Source: an uncultured virus (IMG/VR IMGVR_UViG_3300035703_000051) (lineage: Duplodnaviria > Heunggongvirae > Uroviricota > Caudoviricetes). Taken from it: 24,205 nt of DNA. A program made the position numbers and the translations under genes. Positions 9,159-21,257 of the stretch are shown here, in pieces. The notes beneath the pieces were generated by a model. The model had not been told where the DNA came from and ran no database searches. It worked only from the letters and a program-made list of their open reading frames with translations. Position 1 is the stretch's first letter. Each line of letters opens with the position of its first letter. The DNA lies in IMG/VR virus record IMGVR_UViG_3300035703_000051, one strand, 5' to 3'.

Positions 9159-12100
9159 TTAACGATTACGGCGTTTGCCAGCACGACGACCCGCTTGGGC
9201 CATCAATTGTTGTGTAATTACTTCCAAATTAGAAGGAAGTGTTTCAGAGGAAAAACGAGTTTCTTTAGGTTCAATTTTAGCAATCTGTTCCCTTAAAGCT
9301 TGTAGTTCAGCTCCAGGTCCTGTAGTGGCAGAAGAAAGACGTTGTTGCAGCTCACCAGGGCGACGAGGCATTAAAACACCAACGTTCGCAACGCCAAGTG
9401 CTTCTTCGCCAAAGTCTTTCATCTGCTCCCAATCAGTTTCACCTTCTCCCATGCGAGCCCAAGACTCCATGCTCTTAGGAGACTCACGAATATCAAGGGA
9501 TGGAGGACCAACATACTTGCGAGTTAGAGTTGGCTCGACAACGGAACCACCTGCAAAGCCAAGTTTTTGTGCTTCTTCTCTGGAGAGGGGATAAACATCA
9601 CCTGTTTTTTGATTAACCGTTACAAAAGACTTACGTGACGGGCGGCTGCCAGGGCGACCAATCACTCCTTCGATAAAATCAAATGCAGTTGGAGAATCTA
9701 AAACAGGTAAAGTAATTCCCTTTTGTTCTGCCAACATGCGATTAGCAAGTGAACCAAGTTCCGCATAATCAGTAGCGCCAGTTGCAAAACGCAATCCATT
9801 CAAGAAACCAGCAAGTTCAGTGCGTTTAATTTGACCAGCCGCACTAACTGTTTCCCCTGTTTTGGCATCAAGAACTTGAAGCGGTGCTTGAACAATTGTC
9901 TCGGCAGCTTCAAATACATCATTGGTGAATTTGCCATATTTACCTTCTCGTTCAATTTGACCAACCGGTGGAGCACCCTGTTTTAAAGGACGCTTAACAG
10001 CCATTGGTTGAGTGGTAATAAATTCAAGTTGTTGTCCAGGGGATACATATAACTCAGCACCGTTTACATCTTTTGCAACCCCAATTTCGTTTAACTGACT
10101 TAAATCAGTAATACCAAATTCACCAAGGTTGCCATTCTCATCAACAACTTGTGTTTTGTTGACGAGCATTTTGGTACCAGCCTTGGTTGTGTGCGGTGCA
10201 TAGTACAAGTTATAAACAGGTTCCTGTACTGGAGGTTCAGCGACACCGCCAACTAAACGTCCTTTCTGAGACCCACGACCAAACTCGGGTGTCACGTCAG
10301 GTTGCGCTTTTTGACTTTGATTAAGCGCAGTTTGAAAATAAGAGGTTTCTCGTGCGTCAGCAATAAATTGATCTGCGGTATAAGGACTAACAATCTTCTG
10401 GTGCGCCCGTACCAAAGCGCGGCCTGTTGCTTTGTACTGTTCAGCATCTAAACGATTGGCAACAGTTGGATTTGCTTCTGCAACGGCAATGGCTCTGTTT
10501 TTATCAACTAAGAACGGAACATCCAGATTTATTTGTTCACCGCGTTCAATGGCTTCTACTGTTTCGCTAGGGAGAACATCGCGATATAAAACGGTTTCGG
10601 TCATTTTGACCAGATTGCCTTCCTCGTTGCGTGTTTCAACGTTACGCAAACGCACTGGCATATCTAAGTCATAAGAATCAACCAGGCGATTCCTGCGTGC
10701 TGGACGAGTAATGCTGGATTGACCGCCGGAGAGGTGAGTACGGACTTGATCATCCCAGTAATCACGGAAATTGTTGATTGCTTCTTGGTACTGCTCTGAC
10801 TGCATCATTGGAACAGAAGCGGTACTGACGCCACCGGTAAGACCCGTCAGTGCCTCACTGATTGGTTCCCACTGCTCTTCATCATCTTGGCTGCGGGTGC
10901 GAACAGGGCGTGGTTGTTGAGATGCAAAAGCCGAGCGTTTGATCTCACCTTCTGGAAGAACTGCGTATTCGTCGCCTTCAGTACCTTCTCCGCCACGAAT
11001 TTTTACTGTCCTTGCACCAGCAGCATACTCACCGCCAATCAAACGACCAGCTCGATCAAACTCAGGGGCATTGACATCCAGTGTACGTGCAAAGTTTTGC
11101 GGACCAACCGTCGCTGCGTTATAGCCTGGATCTAAGAATTCAGATTTGCCGTATTGAGCAAATGCATTGATACGTGCATTGATCTCAAACTCATCAAGAC
11201 CAGAGTCGTAAAGTTTTTGAAGCGCAGGAGATGTCTCAGTTGCACCAGCACGACTCAAGGACATTGTCTTACGACGAGCGCGTTGAGTAACTTGATCTTC
11301 CCCTGCTTCTACGGCATTAACCTGTTGGTTACGTGCTTGATTTAAAAGCTGATCTTGAATCGAAGTAAGGTCAGTAAATGCACCAGGTTGGTTGGCGCGT
11401 GTTGGCAATGGTGTAGAAGGCGCTTCTGGTACTGCTGTTTCACCTGAACGCAGTTTTTCAAAATACTCCGCACCAAGAACTCGTTTTTCTTTTACGTCTT
11501 CTGCATTGACAAGACGACGATATAAAGCTTCATTTTGTTGCAAAAACTCATCAACATCAAAAGCACGTGTCTGTGCTTGAGGTTCAGAGCGAATCTCTTC
11601 AAGAACATCATCAATCAGTTGTTCATTGCTTTTTGCAATTCTTGCTTGACGCGAAAGTTCAGAACCATATTCAAATGGAACCGCACGTTCGTAATCTGCT
11701 TCGTATTTTTTAAGCAGTTCATCGGCAACATCGACTGTTGCTTGAGGAATTGCTGCAGATCGTTGTTGAAGAGAAGAAAGAGGTACCATTCGCCCCTGGC
11801 GACGCACCATTCGTTCTTGACGAGGGGGTGGAGCGGGAAGATCTACGGTCGATTGTGGGATTGCTGCAACTTTTGATGGTGCAACAGGTACTGGTTTGTA
11901 TTCCTGCTTGATTTTTTGTACAGCAGCCTCTGGAACTTTGGTTAATTGCGTTCCAGGGGCAGCCGAAACTGGTTTTGCACGTCCACCGGCCAGCATGCGG
12001 CGTCCAGCAAGGCCCGCACCCACTAAAGTGCCCAGTCCCAAGGCTGCAATACCCAAGGTTTCCAGCAGATTGGAGCTTTCTTGCGGTTGACGCACCTGAT

Positions 12101-12215
12101 TACGCCGAAACTCTGCAACTTCAGGGGCAAGTTCCGCCCTTTCTTCCGGATCTTCTGGGTATGGAGTCCCAGTGGCACGGCTGTATGCAGCAAAATCAGC
12201 GGGAGAAAGGGCCAT
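9159..12215 (-). CDS. Large (1018 aa) putative internal virion protein with N-terminal TM-like helix
   Basis: Long uninterrupted ORF; LGIAALGLGTLVGAGLAG segment; internal repeat AAIPQSTVD / AAIPQATVD; no recognisable enzyme motif. Confidence 0.7.
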   Translation of the reverse strand: MALSPADFAAYSRATGTPYPEDPEERAELAPEVAEFRRNQVRQPQESSNLLETLGIAALGLGTLVGAGLAGRRMLAGGRAKPVSAAPGTQLTKVPEAAVQKIKQEYKPVPVAPSKVAAIPQSTVDLPAPPPRQERMVRRQGRMVPLSSLQQRSAAIPQATVDVADELLKKYEADYERAVPFEYGSELSRQARIAKSNEQLIDDVLEEIRSEPQAQTRAFDVDEFLQQNEALYRRLVNAEDVKEKRVLGAEYFEKLRSGETAVPEAPSTPLPTRANQPGAFTDLTSIQDQLLNQARNQQVNAVEAGEDQVTQRARRKTMSLSRAGATETSPALQKLYDSGLDEFEINARINAFAQYGKSEFLDPGYNAATVGPQNFARTLDVNAPEFDRAGRLIGGEYAAGARTVKIRGGEGTEGDEYAVLPEGEIKRSAFASQQPRPVRTRSQDDEEQWEPISEALTGLTGGVSTASVPMMQSEQYQEAINNFRDYWDDQVRTHLSGGQSSITRPARRNRLVDSYDLDMPVRLRNVETRNEEGNLVKMTETVLYRDVLPSETVEAIERGEQINLDVPFLVDKNRAIAVAEANPTVANRLDAEQYKATGRALVRAHQKIVSPYTADQFIADARETSYFQTALNQSQKAQPDVTPEFGRGSQKGRLVGGVAEPPVQEPVYNLYYAPHTTKAGTKMLVNKTQVVDENGNLGEFGITDLSQLNEIGVAKDVNGAELYVSPGQQLEFITTQPMAVKRPLKQGAPPVGQIEREGKYGKFTNDVFEAAETIVQAPLQVLDAKTGETVSAAGQIKRTELAGFLNGLRFATGATDYAELGSLANRMLAEQKGITLPVLDSPTAFDFIEGVIGRPGSRPSRKSFVTVNQKTGDVYPLSREEAQKLGFAGGSVVEPTLTRKYVGPPSLDIRESPKSMESWARMGEGETDWEQMKDFGEEALGVANVGVLMPRRPGELQQRLSSATTGPGAELQALREQIAKIEPKETRFSSETLPSNLEVITQQLMAQAGRRAGKRRNR

Positions 12216-12343
12216 GGAGCTAAATATGTTTAATATTGCTTGATATTTTTATTTTAGAGGGAAGAATTTAAAAAAATAAGTGTTATAGACTTAAAGCACG
12301 ACCAAGTTTTGCCCCTGGTTGGGGTAAAAATAAAAATTAAGCC

Positions 12344-12550
12344 ATGGACGCAAGAGATAGAATGCAACGGGTCATTGGCCTAGAAGCAATTAAAAGCAAA
12401 GCAGAAGATTTATTGAAAGAGGGGAAGACTCCTTTTGAAATTCAACGTTTTGTATCAGGTGCTAAAGGAGAATTAGCGAAACAAAAGCCTGATTGGGAAA
12501 GTTATGCGGCCGCTGTTAAAGCATCTAAAGCAGCACAAAACACTTTTTAG
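12344..12550 (+). CDS. Hypothetical protein (68 aa)
   Basis: ATG ORF divergent from the late operon, followed by a terminator. Confidence 0.7.
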   Translation: MDARDRMQRVIGLEAIKSKAEDLLKEGKTPFEIQRFVSGAKGELAKQKPDWESYAAAVKASKAAQNTF

Positions 12551-12575
12551 TTAATTAATGCAAGGTTTAAAAAGT

Positions 12576-12600
12576 ACCGGGGATAAAACCCCGGTTTTTT
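12576..12600 (+). terminator. Rho-independent terminator
   Basis: ACCGGGG-ATAAAA-CCCCGGT followed by a T run. Confidence 0.8.
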
Positions 12601-12633
12601 GTTGCATTTTTTGGGGTAATTAGGGAAAATACA

Positions 12634-12666
12634 TACAAAAATAAGTTGTAAATTACAAAAATAAGT
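12634..12666. repeat. 13-bp direct repeat TACAAAAATAAGT x2, 20-bp period
   Basis: Copies at 12634-12646 and 12654-12666. Confidence 0.8.
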
Positions 12667-12845
12667 ATTTATTACTACAGAAAGAGCCCCTATATATGGC
12701 GAATAGGGTACAGAATTACCTGACTCTTCTCCAACACCCCAACCGAATTGAATCCTGTATAGAAAAAAAGAAAGGTGGGGAGGGTTGATATAGATAACGG
12801 GGGCTGCGCATCCGTAACACGCAGAGTACCATTGCATTCCGTACC

Positions 12846-13127
12846 ATGGAAACCAACGCAATCCGTCGGTGGCAGTATGACTGGCGCTTGAATGTAGGCG
12901 AGCGTCCGCTTGAGCAGAACGCGGAGCTTTTCCACAGCTATGTGGAGATGGCGTACACGTTGCTCGAGGAGTTTAGCTCAGCCGAGTTCATGTACCACGA
13001 GGTTAGGAGCGTATGTTCGCCCAAGTATCTGTTCAGTGTTGTATGTGATATGCGAAGCGAGAAGCTGAGCATGCGCATTTACAATACTGACTCAGGCATC
13101 AAGGCGATTAGCATCCACAAAGTCTGA
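12846..13127 (+). CDS. Hypothetical early protein (93 aa)
   Basis: ATG ORF; first gene of the plus-strand early block. Confidence 0.65.
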   Translation: METNAIRRWQYDWRLNVGERPLEQNAELFHSYVEMAYTLLEEFSSAEFMYHEVRSVCSPKYLFSVVCDMRSEKLSMRIYNTDSGIKAISIHKV

Positions 13128-13128
13128 C

Positions 13129-13170
13129 GGTTATCTTTTCCCCTGGTGAGAGCCAGGGGTTCATATAGCC
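13129..13170 (+). promoter_or_regulatory. Bulged stem-loop right after a stop codon (family A-like; candidate RNase III site)
   Basis: GGTTAT/ATAGCC lower stem, pyrimidine-rich internal loop, CCCCTGG/CCAGGGG upper stem. Confidence 0.5.
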
Positions 13171-13291
13171 CTCAACACCGTACATTCTGTACAGAATTCC
13201 TTGTTTGATACGTTCGCGTATCGAGCATGAGGTTGGGAAAACCCCCGCCCCGCAACGGGTTTCAATTAGGACAGTAATTAATCTTGCACCT

Positions 13292-13316
13292 CGTCAAGCT
13301 GGACGTTAAACGTAGC
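13292..13316 (+). ncRNA. Candidate H-type pseudoknot leader element (family C, copy 1)
   Basis: CGTC-AAGCTG-GACG-TTAAAC-GTAGC; loop GCTG can pair with TAGC. Confidence 0.45.
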
Positions 13317-13339
13317 ATGCACATCTACACCACACCATC

Positions 13340-13528
13340 ATGATCAAAGCAGAACACACATTTGCAGCAGTCATCATCTGGGCATTTGGTCTCGGCATCC
13401 TTGCAGGTCCAGTCGCTGGTTACCTTATTGATAAGGCAACTGCCAAGCAATGTATTAACCATGACTGGCCCAGGGAGGCTGATCAAATCCACCGTGACTG
13501 GTGCATTGCCAACGGCTACAAGATCTAG
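13340..13528 (+). CDS. Small single-TM membrane protein with Cys pair
   Basis: Hydrophobic N-terminus, then C...WCIANGY; C/A-rich leader. Confidence 0.75.
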   Translation: MIKAEHTFAAVIIWAFGLGILAGPVAGYLIDKATAKQCINHDWPREADQIHRDWCIANGYKI

Positions 13529-13593
13529 CTGATTCGTTAAAGCGAGCGACCAGGTGCAAACCCTGGTCCAGCACTTGCCACAATTCCGTGGCA
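13528..13593 (+). ncRNA. Candidate three-way-junction element with T-loop-like arm
   Basis: GCTG/CAGC closes TTCGT-TAAA-GCGAG and GACCAGG-TGCAAAC-CCTGGTC; followed by a TGCCAC/GTGGCA hairpin. Confidence 0.5.
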
Positions 13594-13611
13594 TTTACTC
13601 AACACAACACC

Positions 13612-13884
13612 ATGCAAACACCTGCACTGGTCTACAAGCCATCCGCTGAAAAGCAGTATCGCGTCACATGGTATGGCGGCGAATCAACCATGCTTCGATT
13701 CGAGAAGCTATGGAATACATTCGACCCAGATACCAACGCTACCTACCAGGAATGGTTGGAGCGTCACGTACGTACTCTCGGCGGTGGCATTCCCAGTTCC
13801 ATGAAAGAGATGCTGTCTGAAATGGAGGATTACTACCATTACGGCATCGAGATGGAACAAGAGTACAAGCGTCAACTCATGTGA
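13612..13884 (+). CDS. Hypothetical early protein (90 aa)
   Basis: ATG at 13612 after ACTCAACACAACACC leader. Confidence 0.75.
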   Translation: MQTPALVYKPSAEKQYRVTWYGGESTMLRFEKLWNTFDPDTNATYQEWLERHVRTLGGGIPSSMKEMLSEMEDYYHYGIEMEQEYKRQLM

Positions 13885-13885
13885 C

Positions 13886-13934
13886 TCCTGCTCTAAGGGG
13901 CTTCGGCCCTTTACTGCAGGACTCAACATCCTGC
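13886..13934 (+). promoter_or_regulatory. Structured intergenic repeat family A, copy 1
   Basis: TCCTGC-TCT-AAGGGGC-TTCG-GCCCTT-TACT-GCAGGA-N7-TCCTGC. Confidence 0.65.
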
Positions 13935-13953
13935 TCACATTCAACTCAACACC

Positions 13954-14145
13954 ATGACTGCACTTAACTTCAGGAAGAACGTACGTGAATTCCTGCCTTG
14001 GGTGAAGGCAACAGCTCAATCTGTTACCAAGGAATGTCAATCGATTAATGCATCGGAGAAGCTGCATGACATCCGCTGTCGTGCTGCTGCACTCATGATG
14101 CCTAACGATATGGCATTTATCATCACACCCAAGCAAGACATCTGA
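13954..14145 (+). CDS. Hypothetical early protein (63 aa)
   Basis: ATG after ATTCAACTCAACACC leader. Confidence 0.7.
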   Translation: MTALNFRKNVREFLPWVKATAQSVTKECQSINASEKLHDIRCRAAALMMPNDMAFIITPKQDI

Positions 14146-14148
14146 ACC

Positions 14149-14355
14149 ATGACTAACAATCATCTGACTGACTCTGTTATCGCCATCGTTCTTGGCACTG
14201 GTGTCGGCATGATCCTGTCTGTTTTCGGACAGAAGATGCTCAACCAGCACTACAAGAACACATGCCACGAGAAGCCAGGTCATAACCTGGTGCTATCACG
14301 TGGATTCCTTGGCGATACCTACTACTGCATCAACAGCAAGTACATCGTCAAATAG
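14149..14355 (+). CDS. Small single-TM membrane protein with Cys pair
   Basis: VIAIVLGTGVGMILSVFG then C...YCINSKY; same layout as 13340..13528. Confidence 0.75.
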   Translation: MTNNHLTDSVIAIVLGTGVGMILSVFGQKMLNQHYKNTCHEKPGHNLVLSRGFLGDTYYCINSKYIVK

Positions 14356-14357
14356 AT

Positions 14358-14729
14358 TCCTGCTCTTAACCCTTCCGTTTGATGCGCTCTTGGCACAATG
14401 GTGGTTTCCACCGAAGTATCAAGCTTCTTTCTGAATCATATGCAGACCATCCTGTCATCCATGCAATCTTTAAGTTGTATTCTTCTAACGCAACACGATT
14501 GAATGCTGGATGATTAGATGGATTGCGCAATCGATTCCAGAGTATTTTGCTACGTCCAATGTACAAGATATTGTCATTGGCATCAATCAATGCATAACAT
14601 CCAGGGACAGCTGGTATCTGCTTGGCTTCCTGCCAAGTTACAGATTGCCAGTTGACTGGATTCATTTCCATTGATCAAGCATAATACGTTTGCGTATCGA
14701 TGGTGGGTTTTCTGCAGGATTCTCCTGCA
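14358..14729 (+). repeat. Structured intergenic repeat family A, copy 2, interrupted by the GIY-YIG gene
   Basis: Left arm TCCTGCTCTTAACCCTTCCGT (14358-14378) and right arm CGATGGTGGGTTTTCTGCAGGA-TTC-TCCTGCA (14698-14729) match copy 3. Confidence 0.75.
14366..14671 (-). CDS. GIY-YIG nuclease (stand-alone catalytic domain)
   Basis: PGCYAL-x6-LYIGRS...NRL...H...E motif as in the UvrC N-terminal domain; antisense to neighbours. Confidence 0.85.
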   Translation of the reverse strand: MEMNPVNWQSVTWQEAKQIPAVPGCYALIDANDNILYIGRSKILWNRLRNPSNHPAFNRVALEEYNLKIAWMTGWSAYDSERSLILRWKPPLCQERIKRKG

Positions 14730-14755
14730 CCACACCACACGACACCACTTGGATC

Positions 14756-15001
14756 ATGACAATGACTCCTAAAGCTGTTGAACATCTACTCACGCAAGAT
14801 GCCCGCCTGCTTGCCAGGAGGGATGCCCCTGTTATTGACCAAGAACTAGAGAGCCAGCGTCAAGCTGCTCTCGATTTGTTCTTCCAATGGCAAGACGGGA
14901 TGCGTGAATTCCAGGACCTTCTACCGTTCTGCGTTGTTCTCCAACGTAAAGTAGATCTCAACCAAGATCTGCTTCGCTGGGAACGCAAGAACATAGACTG
15001 A
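14756..15001 (+). CDS. Hypothetical early protein (about 81 aa)
   Basis: ATG at 14756 (or 14762) within ORF track 14690..15001. Confidence 0.7.
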   Translation: MTMTPKAVEHLLTQDARLLARRDAPVIDQELESQRQAALDLFFQWQDGMREFQDLLPFCVVLQRKVDLNQDLLRWERKNID

Positions 15002-15002
15002 C

Positions 15003-15074
15003 TTCTGCACTTAACCCTTCCGTCAGTACACATGTACTACGACGGTGGGTTTTCTGCAGGACTCACCTCCTGCA
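15003..15074 (+). promoter_or_regulatory. Structured intergenic repeat family A, copy 3
   Basis: TTCTGCACTTAACCCTTCCGTC-AGTACACATGTACTAC-GACGGTGGGTTTTCTGCAGGA-CTCACC-TCCTGCA. Confidence 0.7.
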
Positions 15075-15092
15075 TCCATTGCACACAACACC

Positions 15093-15296
15093 ATGCGAAC
15101 TATTTATTCCATGGGCAAAGGCAAGTACATCACCCTCGATTCTTATGGTGAGAATCATGAGAATCGACTTTGGTCAATTGGTATTGCACTCTTTGCCCTC
15201 ATCATTGCCTCATTCACAGTACCTGCACTGATCGGCATTGACATCACCAACATCAATCAACAGAACAATGGGAATCCACATCGCACTAGTCGCTGA
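15093..15296 (+). CDS. Small membrane protein
   Basis: TM segment LWSIGIALFALIIASFTVPALIGI; C/A-rich leader. Confidence 0.7.
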   Translation: MRTIYSMGKGKYITLDSYGENHENRLWSIGIALFALIIASFTVPALIGIDITNINQQNNGNPHRTSR

Positions 15297-15495
15297 TCGT
15301 TCCGGTCGTTATGCCCATGTCTGGGGCAATGCACGGACCTTTCATCAGTTCTTTGATCAACTCGAAGACATTGGCTGCGAAGTGATCGAGGATCAATCTG
15401 AAGATTGGGACGGTTGCACCAGAGATGAAATTGCTGAGGACTGCTTGTCAGTGCATCAGTTGCTCAACGACTCGGACTTCATACCCCACGAGTAG
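15268..15495 (+). CDS. Acidic hypothetical protein (75 aa)
   Basis: ATG at 15268; D/E-rich C-terminal half. Confidence 0.65.
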   Translation: MGIHIALVADRSGRYAHVWGNARTFHQFFDQLEDIGCEVIEDQSEDWDGCTRDEIAEDCLSVHQLLNDSDFIPHE

Positions 15496-15592
15496 TGCAC
15501 TCCAAATCCAACACGCTACGGCTGGTACTTGCATCCTTGTATGTACCAGCTATTCTCTACCTGCATCCACTGCACTCATCCCAATCCAAACC

Positions 15593-16033
15593 ATGGACGC
15601 TCTCAGCCAACTTGATGTCACTAGCCCCGATCACGTCTCTGTTATCACCAGGGACGGGAAGGTAACCATCTCAGTCTTGAAAGATGGTACGTCTGTGACC
15701 CTTGGCTTCCAGATCCGTAATCCACGCCTTGATTCTTCCCCTCTTCCCCCTCTGCAACAGTCAGTACCGATGATTGTGAAGAAGGGGGACCAGGACAGAG
15801 TTAAGCCTGTTGGTGCACCTGGTACTACGCATGTGCGTTACCGTGGACCAATCCCTAAACTTAACCCAATTTCAGTACGTGATATCAAACTCTTGCTTAA
15901 TGATTCTAAATTCATGAGTAGATTCACAAGCAAGACAAGTGCATATGAAGCAATCGGTCGACAGTACAACGTGACAGGCTGTGCTATTGGCAATATTGCT
16001 CGTGGCATTGCTTGGAATCAAGTCAAAGTCTGA
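15593..16033 (+). CDS. Protein with C-terminal helix-turn-helix
   Basis: KLNPISVRDIK...AYEAIGRQYNVTGCAIGNIARGIAW resembles the HTH modules appended to phage HNH nucleases. Confidence 0.65.
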   Translation: MDALSQLDVTSPDHVSVITRDGKVTISVLKDGTSVTLGFQIRNPRLDSSPLPPLQQSVPMIVKKGDQDRVKPVGAPGTTHVRYRGPIPKLNPISVRDIKLLLNDSKFMSRFTSKTSAYEAIGRQYNVTGCAIGNIARGIAWNQVKV

Positions 16034-16043
16034 CCACACAACA

Positions 16044-16094
16044 CCTGGGCTTCCACTATTGAGAACTCTTCTCAACTGTGGTGTAAGTCCCAGG
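16044..16094 (+). ncRNA. Structured intergenic repeat family B, copy 1
   Basis: CCTGGGC-TT-CCAC...GTGG-TGTAAGT-CCCAGG. Confidence 0.65.
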
Positions 16095-16123
16095 ATCAAC
16101 CGTTCAATTACTCAATTCAAACC

Positions 16124-16252
16124 ATGACCAACCTCGATAACAACTACGAAGCTGACTACATGGATGCAATGGCAGATCGCCTTGCAGACATCGAAGAAGC
16201 TATGCGTGAATCAGAGCCACAAGAATGGGAGGGCTACGATGACGAATCGTAA
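16124..16252 (+). CDS. Very acidic small protein (42 aa)
   Basis: Manual translation MTNLDNNYEADYMDAMADRLADIEEAMRESEPQEWEGYDDES; ACTCAATTCAAACC leader; below ORF-track cutoff. Confidence 0.7.
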   Translation: MTNLDNNYEADYMDAMADRLADIEEAMRESEPQEWEGYDDES

Positions 16253-16327
16253 TCACGAAGATGACATCTTTATTGTCATCATTGCCATCATCTCCATTCT
16301 TGTTACCACACTCATCGATTCAATCCA

Positions 16328-16696
16328 ATGTCTTATCTCTCTGAACTCCAGAAGTTCTACCCCAAGTCCTACAAGTTGCGTTACGCAATCCAACGCTACA
16401 ACACCCACAAGGACTGGGAACACGAAGACCCAACGACTATCACCATCCACGAAACCACGCTCAACTACGGCGGTCCAGAAGAAGGTGGATGGTGGTACCA
16501 TGCAGGACTCCCAGTCCTCACCCACTGCATCTTCTCCAAGAAGCAAGCGGTCCAAACCTTCATCCAATACTTCGACGAGTACGAAATCAAAGACCAGCCC
16601 GACCTCGGGCTCACGTCGACGTACTCGAACTACGAAGTCAACTTCTCCAACGGATACGCTAAGGTCTACCCCGAATCCAAACCACACTATTGCTGA
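16328..16696 (+). CDS. Hypothetical protein (YGGPEEGGWWY motif)
   Basis: 122 aa with strongly C-ending codons; TGATG overlap with next gene. Confidence 0.8.
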   Translation: MSYLSELQKFYPKSYKLRYAIQRYNTHKDWEHEDPTTITIHETTLNYGGPEEGGWWYHAGLPVLTHCIFSKKQAVQTFIQYFDEYEIKDQPDLGLTSTYSNYEVNFSNGYAKVYPESKPHYC

Positions 16697-16947
16697 TGAC
16701 AACAGAAGTACTACCTCAGGTTCGGGGATTGACAACCAATCAACGCAACCTATATCTCTACTTCTTGGCACACAAGAAGAAGCATAAGAACACTCCGTGT
16801 TATGTACCACGGTGTTCAACACAAGTCTCTCGGCTTGATCAATATCTCAATGCATTGGTCAAGCTGGAACAATACGGTTTAATGCGCGTTGACAGAAGCA
16901 GTGCTAACTACACTGGCTGGATCATGCTTGATCCCAAGTCAACGTAA
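16696..16947 (+). CDS. Putative winged-helix DNA-binding protein
   Basis: GLTTNQRNLYLYF...YLNALVKLEQYGLMRV pattern. Confidence 0.55.
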   Translation: MTTEVLPQVRGLTTNQRNLYLYFLAHKKKHKNTPCYVPRCSTQVSRLDQYLNALVKLEQYGLMRVDRSSANYTGWIMLDPKST

Positions 16948-16964
16948 GTGTTATATGCGCATAC

Positions 16965-17022
16965 CCTGGGCGTCCGTACTCGTTGTGCAGATAGCACAGA
17001 AGGAGACGGTGTAAGTCCCAGG
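16965..17022 (+). ncRNA. Structured intergenic repeat family B, copy 2
   Basis: CCTGGGC-GT-CCGT...ACGG-TGTAAGT-CCCAGG. Confidence 0.65.
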
Positions 17023-17052
17023 ACTCAACTCAACCTCAACATCAAACTAACC

Positions 17053-17325
17053 ATGGACCAAAAGCAAACCTATCCTCAGAACGAGTATTACTACCTGGAA
17101 GAAGTCCGTTCCATCCTCAAGAATGTCCTAGCTCGTGAAGCGAAGCGACATCAGATGGATCAACATCTTGTTCCAGGTACAGAAGATGTAATCACAGAGA
17201 TCATTGCCATGCTGGAAGAACAGCTGGACTATGATCCAACACCAAATGAACTTGGTGAACCACCAATTACATCGGATGAAATGCATACAGCTGCATGGAA
17301 AGAACATGTAGCAATGCATTCATAA
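17053..17325 (+). CDS. Hypothetical protein (90 aa)
   Basis: ATG at 17053 after a long G-free leader. Confidence 0.75.
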   Translation: MDQKQTYPQNEYYYLEEVRSILKNVLAREAKRHQMDQHLVPGTEDVITEIIAMLEEQLDYDPTPNELGEPPITSDEMHTAAWKEHVAMHS

Positions 17326-17338
17326 ATCTTAGTCTCAC

Positions 17339-17362
17339 CCCCTGCTTTCTTAGCAGGGGTTT
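17339..17362 (+). terminator. Terminator-like hairpin
   Basis: CCCCTGCT-TTCTT-AGCAGGGG followed by TTT (short U tract). Confidence 0.5.
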
Positions 17363-17394
17363 AAGTTACAATAAGCAGGATTTTATTTCTTGTC

Positions 17395-17754
17395 ATGCCT
17401 GGAGGTTGGTTAACACCTGAAGCTCGCAAACGTTGGGAGCAAGCCAATCCTGAAAAGATGGCTGCGCAGCAGCAGCGACAAAAGATGAAGAGACAAACTC
17501 CAGAAGGACGCAAGAAACGAAATGCTGCAACTTTAGTTCAGAAAAGAGTAGCAAGAGGTAAATACCCCAAGGTATCTGTATTTAAGTGCGTTGATTGTGA
17601 GCGTCAAGCTCAACATTATCACCACACTGATTACGATTTACCTTGGTTGGTAGTTCCTATGTGTTATTTTTGTCACAGACAAGAACATTTACGTCTTGCT
17701 CCCCCCAATCCCCCGAAGGGAGTACCAGGGGATATCTCTTCTATAGATAGATAA
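17395..17754 (+). CDS. HNH-type (His-Me finger) endonuclease
   Basis: CVDC...HYHHTDY...VVPMCYFCHRQEH with a basic N-terminus. Confidence 0.7.
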   Translation: MPGGWLTPEARKRWEQANPEKMAAQQQRQKMKRQTPEGRKKRNAATLVQKRVARGKYPKVSVFKCVDCERQAQHYHHTDYDLPWLVVPMCYFCHRQEHLRLAPPNPPKGVPGDISSIDR

Positions 17755-17840
17755 TCATCCCCCAGATATAAGCATTACTTATACATCATTCATTCCTTGA
17801 CAACCCTGGTAGACTTCACTCGTTACTCAACTCATCACCA

Positions 17841-18050
17841 ATGACAAATCCCAACACTCCACGCATTCCTGATTCAATTGACATCCAAAGACTCCAAGCT
17901 ATGCAGCTTGTAGCCAAGATGAAAGAATCAGCAGAGAAACATGGCATCGGTTTTATTGGGGGCTTTATTGCCCCCAATGGAGAGAAATTCGTCATGACAA
18001 ATATGGATGACGATGATGCCATGACACTTATGCCGGAAGATCTCAAATGA
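17841..18050 (+). CDS. Hypothetical protein (69 aa)
   Basis: ATG after ACTCAACTCATCACCA; ATGA overlap with next gene. Confidence 0.75.
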   Translation: MTNPNTPRIPDSIDIQRLQAMQLVAKMKESAEKHGIGFIGGFIAPNGEKFVMTNMDDDDAMTLMPEDLK

Positions 18051-18247
18051 CTAAAGAACATTCACCAATCAACTTTGATAAAACGATTGCTGGATTCAAT
18101 GTCACAGAACATGGAATCAAATCGTTTACTAAATCGTTTCAGCTTGGTCCGTTCCAGCTCACACTCAATGCTCGTGAGTCTGGTGTCCGTGGATCAATCA
18201 GTATCCCTGGTACAGGACTAAGCAAACGAAACATTAAATTATTCTAA
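18047..18247 (+). CDS. Small beta-rich protein, DUF4236-like
   Basis: LGPFQLTLN...SISIPGTGLS resembles the DUF4236 C-terminal motif. Confidence 0.5.
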   Translation: MTKEHSPINFDKTIAGFNVTEHGIKSFTKSFQLGPFQLTLNARESGVRGSISIPGTGLSKRNIKLF

Positions 18248-18248
18248 A

Positions 18249-18310
18249 GATCTGGGCATCTATTCAGCAACGCCGCGTCCAGGACAAGCTGGAAGTGTAA
18301 GTCCCAGATC
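18249..18310 (+). ncRNA. Structured intergenic repeat family B, copy 3
   Basis: GATCTGGGC-ATCT...AG-TGTAAGT-CCCAGATC; outer stem covaries relative to copies 1 and 2. Confidence 0.65.
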
Positions 18311-18334
18311 CCGTCCACCTACTCAACTCAAATC

Positions 18335-18520
18335 ATGTCTGCTTACACCGATGACATCAACTTGTTTGATCGAATCAATCTTGCTGCCTGCGCTGTGCGC
18401 AGAGCACAAGGATGCATACTTGACGAACAACGTTTCAATGCTGAGTACGAAAGTGCTCGTGCATGGAACAAGTACAAGTGTGTCATTACCAAACACTATT
18501 CCTACGTGGATGACAACTGA
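18335..18520 (+). CDS. Hypothetical protein (61 aa)
   Basis: ACTCAACTCAAATC leader; TGATG overlap with next gene. Confidence 0.7.
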   Translation: MSAYTDDINLFDRINLAACAVRRAQGCILDEQRFNAEYESARAWNKYKCVITKHYSYVDDN

Positions 18521-18762
18521 TGACAGTCCTTGCAATTGAAGACACTCACTTCACTCAAACCCATGTCACAGTTACAGCAGTTGTTGACGACATGCGCCTG
18601 CTCTATCGGGCGACTCGCTTCGAACCTGAAGAGTGGGCTCCTGCATTGTGTCGAGCAACTATTGAACTGGATCCAGAGGAATCAATCCCTCTTGACGAAG
18701 ATGGCTTCTGTAGCTATCTTGATGACCTCGATCCTCAATGGGAACTCATCGAGTGTGACTAA
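18520..18762 (+). CDS. Acidic hypothetical protein (80 aa)
   Basis: Coupled start; D/E-rich. Confidence 0.7.
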   Translation: MTVLAIEDTHFTQTHVTVTAVVDDMRLLYRATRFEPEEWAPALCRATIELDPEESIPLDEDGFCSYLDDLDPQWELIECD

Positions 18763-18771
18763 CTAAGTCAC

Positions 18772-18800
18772 GCGTCCTGAGCATGACGTTAAACTGCTCA
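18772..18800 (+). ncRNA. Candidate H-type pseudoknot leader element (family C, copy 2)
   Basis: GCGTC-CTGAGCAT-GACGT-TAAAC-TGCTCA; loop TGAGCA is perfectly complementary to TGCTCA. Confidence 0.55.
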
Positions 18801-18829
18801 ACACTACGAACCAACTACGAACTCAACTC

Positions 18830-20536
18830 ATGCATTTCCAACTTCCTTCTCACCTCCAACAAGAACTCCTTGCTTACGACCCACAGCTCAAGGCTTTGGT
18901 ACGTGAGCAACAACCTAAGAAGACCACCAAGAAAGCTAAGTATCCACTGGGTAACATTCCGCATCTCATCCCTGAGACTGTGGTACGCAGCAGCTTGCAG
19001 CAAGATGCAATCGACCGTATCAATGGTGAGCTAGCACCAGGGAGATTCCATACATTTACCAAGGTGGTTGATGTGGCTACACCTCAGGCACGCACTGTGC
19101 CATTTGCCATCATCTATCACTTCGAGCAATGCTGGTATGCAGCATGGCTTCCGCAGCGTGGCGAAGACTATCTCTATGGCTACGCCTACGCATTCAAGAA
19201 CACTGCAGCAGCAGCTAAAGTCGTACCCAACCACATCTGGAACAGTAAAGATCAATGTACTGAGCACCAAGTGGGTCGCGGTCTGCAGACCTTTACTTAC
19301 TCTGCAACTGTTACCAAGCAAGACATCATTGCTGGTGCAGATGGACGCAAGTGGCGTGCCATGGGAATAGCTTCTTATTACCAGAAAGCACGTGAGATCA
19401 ACCAGGCCATTAATGCGTTTGAGCAAGAGCTGATGGCAACCATTCCAACATGGAATGATTCACGCAGCATCTTTGATCGCCTTAAGTGCACCAACGTGCT
19501 TGATGCATTAGATCTACCTAGTTACTTTACAAATCGCGTAAAGGATAAAGACAGCTTTCAACTTACTGTTGATTCATTAATTGCTACATCAAAGAAAGCT
19601 GGCGACTATGGTAGCTATCCCCATTTCCATTCAATCTTGACAGGCATTGAACATATCATTACAACTCCATGGATCAAGAAAGAATTGCAATATGAATTAG
19701 ATCGTTCTACTGCAGTATGGAATACTCCAAGCAATAATTTGCGTAAATCAATTAAGTATGGTTTTAACGCATTTGAGCATATCTGTAATTCAATTCATTT
19801 CATTAATCAGATCTGGCCTGATTGTCCCATCGATCACTATCGTACGTACTACGAAGAACTGCGTCATGTCAATCTTGGTCATCTGCGTCGTAGCGATCAG
19901 ATGATTAACTGGCTGCGTGAGCATATGCCTGTTACATCAATGTTTAATATCCTGCGTAAGTTCCATGAATCAGAAACTAATGGACGTGTAAGTACACTGA
20001 GTGATCATGATTACCCAATCAAATCATTCTGGGAACTTAACGATACATTCTCCATGATCATGCGTGTTTTGCAAGATGGTAAAACACTTGAGCCTCCCAA
20101 GCGTTGGCGTATGCCTGATTTCCATGACTATGTGCAAGCAGAAGCATGGAAGGTTACCAACAAGAATGAATCACTGCACCAGGATCTATTCCCTGCACCT
20201 GTCAAGGTCAGCATGGATGGCAGTGAATGGACATTCATTCAACCCATCGACACCCATCAGCTGGCCCAGTGGGGTCAAGCTGTACGCAACTGTGTTGGCT
20301 CTGCGTCCCAGTATGCAGAGAACATCAAGAAGCGCAAGCACTTCATTGTGCTCTGCATGATTGATGGCAAGCCAACCTTTACCATCCAACTGGATGTATC
20401 CATGGGTGTGATGAACGTCAAGCAGATTGCTGGCGTAGGCAACCAGCGATTAGATGATGATCAACGTGAGCAGTACTCACAAGCATTCAAGCAAGCCTTG
20501 CAATCTCGTGAATCTGAGCTAAGCTCTAAGAGCTGA
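18830..20536 (+). CDS. PcfJ-like domain protein
   Basis: C-terminal FHD...QPIDTHQLAQWGQAVRNCVGS...Y...FTIQL...KQIAGVGN matches the PcfJ-like signature. Confidence 0.75.
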   Translation: MHFQLPSHLQQELLAYDPQLKALVREQQPKKTTKKAKYPLGNIPHLIPETVVRSSLQQDAIDRINGELAPGRFHTFTKVVDVATPQARTVPFAIIYHFEQCWYAAWLPQRGEDYLYGYAYAFKNTAAAAKVVPNHIWNSKDQCTEHQVGRGLQTFTYSATVTKQDIIAGADGRKWRAMGIASYYQKAREINQAINAFEQELMATIPTWNDSRSIFDRLKCTNVLDALDLPSYFTNRVKDKDSFQLTVDSLIATSKKAGDYGSYPHFHSILTGIEHIITTPWIKKELQYELDRSTAVWNTPSNNLRKSIKYGFNAFEHICNSIHFINQIWPDCPIDHYRTYYEELRHVNLGHLRRSDQMINWLREHMPVTSMFNILRKFHESETNGRVSTLSDHDYPIKSFWELNDTFSMIMRVLQDGKTLEPPKRWRMPDFHDYVQAEAWKVTNKNESLHQDLFPAPVKVSMDGSEWTFIQPIDTHQLAQWGQAVRNCVGSASQYAENIKKRKHFIVLCMIDGKPTFTIQLDVSMGVMNVKQIAGVGNQRLDDDQREQYSQAFKQALQSRESELSSKS

Positions 20537-20586: not shown

Positions 20587-20805
20587 ATGTCTGATTACAC
20601 AGATGATCAATTGCTTGCCATGGCAATGGCAAACATCGGTGAATACATTCATGACAATTCACCGCAGTACATCCTGATCGAAGACGATCCACGCAACGAG
20701 GAAGACTACGACACATGGGAGTATGGCACTGAGCCATTACCTCATGACCACACTTGGCACTCAACATCAATTGATGTAGAGGTAAGTCCAAGTGTGGCCG
20801 ACTAG
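20587..20805 (+). CDS. Very acidic hypothetical protein (72 aa)
   Basis: About 18 D/E versus 1 R; stop lies inside the tRNA. Confidence 0.7.
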   Translation: MSDYTDDQLLAMAMANIGEYIHDNSPQYILIEDDPRNEEDYDTWEYGTEPLPHDHTWHSTSIDVEVSPSVAD

Positions 20806-20871
20806 CCCAACGGCAGAGGCAAACGACTTAAAATCGTTCAAGTCCCGGTTCGAATCCGGGGTCGGCTACCA
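20796..20871 (+). tRNA. trnL: tRNA-Leu (anticodon TAA), short variable loop, encoded CCA
   Basis: Acceptor GGCCGAC/GTCGGCT, D arm GCC...GGC, anticodon arm AACGA-CTTAAAA-TCGTT, T arm CCCGG-TTCGAAT-CCGGG, A73, CCA. Confidence 0.92.
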
Positions 20872-20894: not shown

Positions 20895-21257
20895 ATGCAA
20901 ATCTTTGCTGCATTTAAAGCTTTCATTCCTGAGTTTCATGCATACTCAGATGATGAGCGTCGCTACAACATCGGTGCTACATGGACCGATAACAATGGCT
21001 TGCAGGATTACCACAACCTGCAGGTTAAGTACGTTCGCAACTCAGAACGTCTTGCGCTCCAGGGTGATCCGCAGCCTGATGGCAGCTGGAAGTACGTTGA
21101 ACCCAACGGTGCTGTCCACATCATCTCAGCTGAACGTGCTCGGCACTTCATGGAAAAAACCCATGAGCATGCAACACTCATGTGCGGCATGATCGAGCGC
21201 CTCAAGCAGGCTGGTCTCGCTGATCAATTCATTGACACCAGCGCAGAACCTGTTTAA
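20895..21257 (+). CDS. Hypothetical protein (120 aa)
   Basis: ATTCAACTCAACCATC leader; terminator downstream. Confidence 0.75.
   Translation: MQIFAAFKAFIPEFHAYSDDERRYNIGATWTDNNGLQDYHNLQVKYVRNSERLALQGDPQPDGSWKYVEPNGAVHIISAERARHFMEKTHEHATLMCGMIERLKQAGLADQFIDTSAEPV

Follow-up and report, generated by a model that had tools for sequence, protein, structure and literature searches.

Four families of cis-acting structured RNA in the early-operon spacers of a freshwater cyanophage related to S-EIVl

What lies in the spacers between the small early genes of a freshwater cyanophage, so many of which open at a stop codon with a foldable sequence and close with a leader that is poor in guanine? The question is raised by IMG/VR record IMGVR_UViG_3300035703_000051, a stretch of 24,205 nucleotides (nt) from an uncultured member of the Caudoviricetes (hereafter the window), which is a relative of Synechococcus phage S-EIVl. 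Its region 12300–19100 matches S-EIVl alone of 50,697 GenBank phages (72 % identity over 18 %). Structural genes, including the large terminase gene at 213–1739, occupy the minus strand up to 12215, and about 19 small open reading frames (ORFs) of unknown function follow on the plus strand from 12846 to the gene of a PcfJ-like protein of 568 amino acids (aa) at 18830–20536. An earlier note on the segment 13128–18830 had described its spacers as cassettes of stop codon, foldable element, G-free C/A-rich leader and ATG. We find that the spacers of this early operon carry four families of cis-acting structured RNA, here called A, B, C and D, which are folded on the mRNA-sense strand.

A search with the 568-aa protein returned 26 related IMG/VR loci at 48–74 % identity, each with up to 8 kb of early region; after removal of identical copies, 19 loci and S-EIVl itself (L001) were compared with the window. 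By gene calls, twelve plus-strand spacers longer than 40 nt fall within 13128–18830, and eight of these hold a family member recognised by covariance model or by pattern. Two of the remaining four contain degenerate relatives (at 13292 and 15496), and two sit beside an HNH-endonuclease island. Gene pairs that lack a module overlap or abut at stop and start, as seen for 14145/14149, 18050/18047 and 18520/18520. The order within a unit is upstream stop, folded module, G-poor leader of 17–35 nt and AUG, whereby the module starts 0–10 nt 3′ of the upstream stop or encloses it, the stop UGA being helical in A and D. The layout given in the earlier note is confirmed, except that the leaders are G-poor and not strictly G-free: the 25 nt upstream of 11 module-associated starts consist of 42 % C, 33 % A, 20 % T and 6 % G, compared with 22 % G in early coding sequence. 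Late-gene leaders, which lie on the other strand, are A/T-rich, and reading of the early and the late-gene leaders revealed no Shine–Dalgarno (SD) match in either. The predicted unpaired probability between −20 and +10 amounts to 0.65 at the 11 early starts; 40 positions drawn at random from the early region average 0.44±0.14, and 15 late starts 0.50. Along the operon the families are ordered D, A, B, C, and a gene and module map of 20 genomes shows conserved synteny.

Family B is a hairpin with an invariant internal loop and the consensus CUGGG-C-R-U-CC-(variable hairpin)-GG-UGUAAGU-CCCAG. Model R1, built from eight minimal copies, matched 75 times across 21 sources, and 73 of these matches are on the gene strand. 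Across 64 distinct rows 97.5 % of the cells are paired, slid controls reaching 28–80 %, and 43 cells carry double changes compared with 6.7±2.1 after shuffling, a count attained in 0 of 500 shuffles. The outer stem occurs as CUGGG/CCCAG, CUAGG/CCUAG, CUUGG/CCAAG and CAUGGG/CCCAUG, and both pairs of the inner stem covary from CG to UA. In the internal loop, 61 of 62 copies have an unchanged UAAGU on the 3′ strand, and most have C-purine-U on the 5′ strand. Two further foldings of this element were considered and given up. A T-arm-like hairpin GG-UGUAAGU-CC is excluded because the inner-stem pairs covary, the G before the loop changing together with the 5′-strand C (CG 47, UA 6, AU 1), and a pseudoknot between the UGUAAGU strand and the leader was dropped since the longest complementary runs show no excess in the 55 leaders behind B over the 28 behind D or the 37 behind A.

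The exact 13-nt B core occurs three times in the window compared with 0.41 expected (three were reached in 0 of 100 shuffles), and in five complete relatives all 20 B matches lie inside the single early region of about 8–9 kb. Copies start at most 10 nt after an ORF end in 31 of 62 cases, and an ATG lies 20–29 nt past the model end in 49 of 62. Examination of unique contexts of the core gave an ORF end within 14 nt on its 5′ side in 73 of 102, versus 13 of 101 on the opposite strand, and an ATG 15–40 nt on its 3′ side across a spacer of at most 10 % G in 53 of 103. B is primarily a post-stop element, which speaks for a function on the 3′ side of the message that precedes it.

Family C, with the consensus CGUC-C-UGAGCA-U-GACG-UUAAAC-UGCUCA, is a compact H-type RNA pseudoknot with loops of 1, 1 and 6 nt, and both of its stems are kept by compensatory change. 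A loose pattern has 55 matches on the plus strand and one on the minus strand. In 49 distinct copies stem 1 is paired in 99.5 % of the cells (outer pair CG, GC or UA; UA or AU further in) and stem 2 in 93.2 %, with double changes at five of its six pairs; taken together, the stems are 95.7 % paired and hold 62 double-change cells compared with 20.4±3.1 after shuffling, slid controls pairing at 23–47 %. An independent IMG/VR set of 136 unique contexts, collected with a search pattern that excluded the 3′ strand of stem 2, has stem 2 paired in 755 of 816 cells with alternation of GC, AU and GU. Stem 1 begins 3–11 nt past the stop codon in 29 of 53 copies, in 17 of them at exactly 5 nt, and an ATG follows 19–35 nt past stem 2 in 50 of 52.

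The element at 13528, initially regarded as a singleton, belongs to the large family D. RNAalifold folds 15 seeds into a three-way junction, and model R2 built on it gives 40 matches, 39 of them on the gene strand. Pairing holds in 95.5 % of the cells, with 102 double-change cells compared with 27.8±4.1 after shuffling and compensatory changes at 12 of 16 pairs. Helix P3 is a stem of 6–7 base pairs (bp) with a 7-nt loop, mostly UGCAAAC, of which UUCAAUU, UUCAAUC and AUCAAAU are variants. The loop consensus is U-(G/U)-C-R-A-N-N; 28 of 30 loops begin UGC(A/G)A or UUCAA, the other two being UUCAAUU-type and AUCAAAU, and in a second set of 116 contexts all begin UGCAA, as the search pattern required. 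The 3′ strand of P3 is continuous with that of P1, gapless in 29 of 30 copies, and the two helices add up to 12 bp in 17 copies, 11 bp in 7, 13 bp in 5 and 10 bp in one, their lengths trading off as 7+5, 7+4, 6+6 or 6+7. Sums of 11–13 bp recur in 105 of 116 further IMG/VR contexts, and the window copy has 11 bp.

The acceptor/T-arm minihelix of transfer RNA (tRNA) comprises 7+5 bp on a continuous 3′ strand and a 7-nt loop with U54, C56, R57 and A58. As modelled from the alignments, D has the dimensions of such a minihelix: its coaxial helix is predicted to measure about 12 bp, its 7-nt loop is T-loop-like, and one side hairpin (P2) replaces both the D arm and the anticodon arm. Not one D copy is called by ARAGORN, and D goes unmatched by the Rfam tRNA model. 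The 5′ strand of P1 holds a conserved CUGA, and in 99 of 111 contexts the UGA in it terminates, in frame, an ORF of 33 or more open codons. The 3′ side of D is taken by a hairpin GCCAC..GUGGC or, alternatively, by a small pseudoknot, the second stem of which covaries between GCGG/CCGC and GCCG/CGGC. The pseudoknot-type variant (L001 5217–5260, L015 966–1000 and others) precedes AGGAG and a GUG start, the gene behind it being the sole early gene type with a classical ribosome-binding site; the GenBank start of this gene in S-EIVl is an ATG inside the pseudoknot.

Family A comprises three arms in the layout UGA-N-(5′ arm UCCUGCA)-CUUAA-(P2, short or long)-UUUUC-(middle arm UGCAGGA)-(loop CUCAACA)-(3′ arm UCCUGCA). 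Model R3 yields 41 distinct plus-strand rows, which weaker minus-strand matches mirror because the element is quasi-palindromic. In 37 intact copies P2 is paired in 97.0 % of the cells compared with 68.5 % after shuffling, and the middle arm can pair either with the 5′ arm (P1, 92.3 %; shuffles 85.9) or with the 3′ arm (P3, 91.1 %; shuffles 86.1). The three arms change jointly, GCAGGU occurring with AUCUGC and ACCUGC, GCAGGG with CUCUGC and CCCUGC, and GCAGUC with GACUGC and GACUGC. P1 and P3 are mutually exclusive, and the P1 state is predicted to be the stabler one in 35 of 37 copies, by 3.8 kcal/mol on average; predicted energies of the P1 and P3 states are −26.4 and −20.0 kcal/mol for the first window copy and −31.2 and −29.4 kcal/mol for the third. 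The P1 state is a long interrupted hairpin of about 17–27 bp, and in it the stop UGA pairs with UCA of the P3 loop. In 27 of 37 copies the upstream ORF ends in frame at this UGA, and an ATG is found 17–29 nt past the 3′ arm in 36 of 37.

The A copy claimed at 14358 is matched by R3 in both halves, but it is split by a 327-nt insertion (14376–14702) that breaks the apex of P2 and holds a minus-strand ORF of 101 aa (14366–14671) with a weak match to GIY-YIG (Pfam, E 0.0023). Contigs of two other metagenome runs (X2 and X3) lack the insertion and join 14375 to 14703 by 15 other letters that restore the hairpin apex. A homologous 101-aa ORF is located at the same A site in one further locus (L024, 3540–3845), close relatives of which (L019 and L020) have an intact module. 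Judged from these sequences, the apex insertion looks like a free-standing homing-endonuclease gene targeting the repeated module.

Further resemblance to A had been suspected at 13129, where R3 gives no match. The 212-nt spacer in question, which precedes gene 13340–13528, holds the element at 13292, a hairpin at 13141–13160 and an orphan palindrome at 13207–13222, GAUACG-UUCG-CGUAUC, which resembles the A apex; with an AAUU loop, as in related strains, it is the 16-nt palindrome found at the apex of long A. The element at 13292–13320 is unmatched by the C pattern. The module at 15496–15592 is likewise unmatched by R3 and belongs to a direct-repeat family (D1), with 77 % identity to 15069–15103. 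The positions of all members in the window are compiled in Table 1.

Table 1. Structured elements of the early region and the tRNA gene downstream of it, in window coordinates.
Feature	Position	Strand	Match	Description
C-like degenerate element	13292..13320	+		Stem 1 CGUC/GACG and UUAAAC retained; stem 2 weak, about 3 bp; read from sequence
D module	13527..13592	+	R2, 71.9 bits, E 1.2e-21	P1 (GCUG/CAGC), P2 hairpin and P3 of 7 bp with loop UGCAAAC at 13527–13577
D module, 3′ part	13577–13592	+		Hairpin GCCAC..GUGGC; leader 13593–13611; ATG 13612
A copy 1, short P2 (GGGGC-UUCG-GCCCU)	13882..13942	+	R3, 47.2 bits, E 6.9e-11	Opens with UGA of gene 13612–13884; leader up to ATG 13954
A copy 2, split	14354..14736	+	R3, 14354–14423 and 14658–14736	5′ half 14354–14375, 3′ half 14703–14736
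A copy 3, long P2	14999..15081	+	R3, 94.9 bits, E 2.3e-24	Opens with UGA of gene 14756–15001; leader up to ATG 15093
Degenerate or hybrid module	15496..15592	+		Own hairpin 15522–15551, then A-like 3′ arm and leader (CCUGCAUCCACUGCAC...)
B copy 1	16042..16097	+	R1, 31.7 bits, E 2.5e-6	Outer stem CCUGGG/CCCAGG, internal loop CUU / UGUAAGU, variable upper hairpin; ATG 16124
B copy 2	16963..17025	+	R1, 33.3 bits, E 8.5e-7	ATG 17053
B copy 3	18249..18311	+	R1, 38.1 bits, E 3.1e-8	1 nt past stop of gene 18047–18247; ATG 18335
C copy	18773..18800	+		Stem 1 CGUC/GACG, stem 2 UGAGCA/UGCUCA, loop 3 UUAAAC; 29-nt leader; ATG 18830 of 568-aa PcfJ-like gene
tRNA-Leu(UAA), encoded CCA	20796..20871	+	ARAGORN; Rfam tRNA, 56 bits, 20796–20868	

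Within the window it had been observed that copies keep their loops while their stems change compensatorily, which was taken as a sign of selection on single-stranded structure. Both statements are borne out across the relatives by the covariation found in all four families, whose compensatory changes are far more numerous than in shuffled and slid controls, and by the kind of mismatch that is tolerated: the B, C and D alignments contain 93 G·U cells as opposed to 11 A·C cells, and therefore the fold lies on the mRNA-sense strand, since a fold of the other strand or a symmetric DNA cruciform would lack this bias. The same numbers bear on the idea that the modules act as DNA, be it as promoter-terminator cassettes in the manner of the PeSLs of T4-type phages, as single-strand hairpin promoters or as recombination or homing sites, their RNA fold being incidental. 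Modules do bound the gain and loss of cassettes, a GIY-YIG-like gene sits in the palindromic A apex in two phages, and PeSLs also span upstream stop to downstream ATG (PMC2839356). We nevertheless hold this explanation to be very improbable. Apart from the excess of G·U over A·C, the pseudoknot and the three-way junction covary and all copies lie on the coding strand. A promoter reading of the modules was rejected as no consensus match is present: 12200–19000 has four sigma-70-like sites, compared with 9.6±3.0 in shuffled sequence, and none of them falls in a module. No module scores as a terminator either, terminator-like sites being confined to 12576–12595 and 17339–17359, and T runs are missing from the modules.

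A scan of the whole window against Rfam 15 at E≤1 returned the tRNA at 20796–20868 as its sole match, and at E≤10 the region 13100–18900 gave four chance matches to snoRNA and lncRNA families on the other strand and none on the modules. Literature searches gave no description of these elements, though the S-EIVl genome paper, which lay outside the search, may bear on this. The four are structured-RNA families not catalogued before, in line with the earlier expectation of several distinct kinds of element. That some of them are riboswitches or self-cleaving ribozymes, the latter having also been proposed at the outset, may be suggested by the compact H-type pseudoknot of C with its A-rich third loop and by the three-way junction of D with its conserved loops. 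It is hardly probable, given that not even at E≤10 is a Rfam family matched, that the modules interchange and precede many unrelated ORFan genes instead of one pathway, and that stem 2 of C is a stable 6-bp Watson–Crick helix with no obvious ligand-dependent step; for ribozymes in particular we found no evidence.

The families are abundant among uncultured phages. The exact B pattern is present in 119 IMG/VR stretches and has no match in 185,579 prokaryote genomes, C is present in at least 139 IMG/VR stretches and D in at least 120, the D pattern hitting a single 4.7-kb contig of a metagenome-assembled genome in the same prokaryote set. With a 39-nt minimal B query no match was obtained at E≤1 among the 50,697 GenBank phage records. 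A 112-kb contig (L149, 1520–1625) and many small contigs have the B core placed between a structural and a capsid-like gene; behind it come a palindrome (UGGUUGCAACCA), UUUGAAG and the ribosome-binding site GGAG, a different downstream grammar. In a number of G+C-rich IMG/VR loci (L102, L078, L111, L051 and others) it stands after CCUGAUG and before long runs of the five-base repeat GGCNN.

Relatives of the window differ in which module occupies a given junction. After gene 15593–16033, B is found in seven genomes and C in five, and after gene 18047–18247, B in eight and C in three; the junction before the 568-aa gene usually holds C and in one locus (L009) holds B. Extra genes arrive as units of B plus gene or D plus gene, for instance f2-B-f9-B-f10-B in five genomes, and runs of the type B-gene-B-gene-B are present in some genomes of the 20-genome map and missing in others. 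Contigs of other metagenome runs, placed on the window at ≥85 % likeness, have joints at 13527 (D start), at 13883 (A start) and from 18251 to 18773 (B start to C start) in three runs, and in one such contig a minimal B precedes the 13612 gene. We take the joints for relatives with another arrangement, deletions being unproven because the short sides measure only 19–40 nt. The proposal that the repeats serve as recombination points for swapping early genes agrees with these data, as the modules bound cassettes that differ between relatives.

As for the function of the modules, the explanation we put forward, and to which we give about an even chance, is that of post-transcriptional punctuation: the modules would mark processing and stability boundaries and provide open initiation regions, so that each following cistron becomes autonomous. 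As stable structures at the boundaries, they would be the places where the long early transcript undergoes processing or is shielded, with a 3′ structure left on the upstream piece and an open leader on the downstream one, and they would keep the SD-less initiation region from pairing with upstream sequence. D may be read by host tRNA-processing enzymes because it copies the acceptor/T-arm minihelix. For A, a two-state behaviour can be envisaged in which a ribosome terminating at the UGA opens the whole 5′ strand of P1 and frees the middle arm for P3. The repeated modules would double as homologous joints for cassette exchange, a by-product of their main role.

Several points weigh against this explanation or against the numbers behind it. 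Shuffle controls overstate significance since the compared sequences share kinship, and alignments fitted to covariance models are biased to the modelled structure. The arms of A vary little, so that few independent changes are available to decide between P1 and P3. Beyond the S-EIVl group the sequence downstream of the B core differs, with about 60 nt and GGAG before a capsid-like gene or with GGCNN repeats, and because of these other contexts the spacing from B to AUG is not universal. An RNase P cut 5′ of P1 in D would strip the upstream stop codon; simple tRNA-style 5′ processing of D is awkward because this stop lies in P1. Finally, the invariant loops (UAAGU in B, UUAAAC in C, UGCAA in D) point to a specific partner, which a boundary role leaves unnamed.

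Owing to the specific partner that these loops imply, a protein-operator role stays the main rival. The modules would then be operators for phage or host RNA-binding proteins acting as global translational repressors or activators, for which RegA and gp32 of T4 provide the model, and each family would define a sub-regulon timing early genes. Loops and internal loops that are near-invariant while stems vary, the clustering of the families along the operon from D through A and B to C, and the fixed spacing from module to AUG would all fit. We still regard this as unlikely on balance: B and C interchange before the same orthologous gene, and searches of Pfam and PHROGs assigned none of the window's early proteins to an RNA-binding family and produced no RNase candidate. 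A lineage-specific protein is also unlikely for B because its core is shared by phages that are unrelated and differ widely in G+C content and context.

An analogy with bacteriophage T7, whose early mRNA carries intercistronic RNase III sites directly after stop codons, had been drawn for the region as a whole, and is not supported in this general form. Substrates of RNase III comprise roughly two turns of double helix with an internal loop, and T7-type sites, being stems with an internal loop, would upon cleavage leave a stabilising 3′ hairpin. The modules share with them the intercistronic position in an early polycistronic transcript directly past stop codons; also in favour are the asymmetric internal loop that separates the two helices of B and the P1 state of A, a long interrupted hairpin. 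Most modules, however, would seem too short or are not hairpin-shaped: minimal B is a 28-nt hairpin of merely 5–6 plus 2 bp, C is a compact pseudoknot and D a three-way junction, which leaves the long-hairpin A alone near substrate length. That the modules are RNase III sites is accordingly improbable in our estimation.

The nearest functional parallel to D, as far as likeness of form can tell, lies in tRNA punctuation and in tRNA-like signals for processing. In mitochondrial transcripts, tRNAs punctuate the message, and tRNA-like t-elements and other tRNA-like structures serve as processing signals. The likeness consists in the minihelix of 12 bp with its continuous 3′ strand and T-loop-like loop and in a true tRNA in an equivalent slot of the same operon: behind the tRNA-Leu gene come a C/A-rich leader of 23 nt and an ATG at 20895, which is the slot geometry of the modules. 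D differs from tRNA in its single side arm, in the upstream stop within its 5′ helix strand and in escaping ARAGORN and the Rfam tRNA model. In three relatives (L009, L010 and L015) a B-like element (CUUGG/CCAAG) ends at the ARAGORN start base of tRNA-Leu. A more specific version of the punctuation scheme can be imagined on these grounds, in which the long transcript would be cut at the slots of D mimics, C, B and tRNA-Leu by host tRNA-processing or related endonucleases into units with a protected 3′ structure and an open SD-less leader, the A switch being set by the ribosome; we offer it tentatively and do not expect it to hold in full. The B-like and tRNA-Leu sites are at 9938–10071 in L009, 9937–10069 in L015 and 10457–10576 in L010. 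A B core also lies 5 nt upstream of tRNA-Asn in an unrelated 109-kb contig (L148, 1581–1689), and the T loop of tRNA-Leu in some relatives is an unusual UGCAAGU.

Among repeated phage elements, two known systems invite comparison. PeSLs of T4-type phages combine strong sigma-70-like promoters with terminator stem-loops, followed by a Shine–Dalgarno sequence (PMC2839356; PMC4122927). Like the modules, they are described there as repeated composite motifs with a span from stop to ATG, concentrated in plastic regions and flanking ORFan cassettes that differ between relatives; the modules differ in having no promoter or terminator consensus, in their G-poor leaders and in their covarying complex folds, namely pseudoknot, three-way junction and two-state element. 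The SAS/ESAS elements of Cluster K mycobacteriophages include the 13-nt G-rich SAS, which overlaps the ribosome-binding region and for which a role in translation initiation is suspected (PMC3203893). They resemble the modules as phage-specific repeats that keep to one orientation, lie just 5′ of the starts of a subset of genes from different families and are missing from the genome of the host, and also in an inverted repeat with variable spacer upstream. The modules, in contrast, are folded domains 17–35 nt 5′ of the AUG, and their AUG-proximal region is a G-poor unstructured leader.

With the present analysis, four RNA motif families supported by covariation are added, which abound in uncultured freshwater phages and of which the cultured S-EIVl carries copies. 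It also provides a regular grammar for SD-less translation units in a cyanophage, with a stop in or beside a fold, a G-poor leader of fixed length and an AUG, and with it candidates for processing, stability and translation control of polycistronic early RNA in cyanobacteria. Among these candidates are a putative tRNA mimic with a stop codon in its stem and a possible ribosome-sensing two-state element. The idea of regulatory cassettes as gene-shuffling joints would be extended from promoter-terminator DNA motifs to RNA modules.

Some minor features of the region may be mentioned. The terminator-like hairpin at 12576–12595 is bidirectional and lies 3′ of gene 12344–12550. The leader of the first early gene (12800–12845, gene start 12846) has a hairpin CUGCGCAUCCGUAACACGCAG, the 5′ half of which is like a minimal B element. 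Downstream of the 568-aa PcfJ-like gene follow tRNA-Leu(UAA), an NrdR-like zinc ribbon, endonuclease VII and ThyX. The HNH-endonuclease-like gene at 17395–17754 (phrog_2340, E 1.1e-11) is situated in an A/T-richer island (17345–17709) flanked by GGGG/CCCC hairpins; contigs of three other runs lack the island and have GA instead, with a joint from 17344 to 17710.

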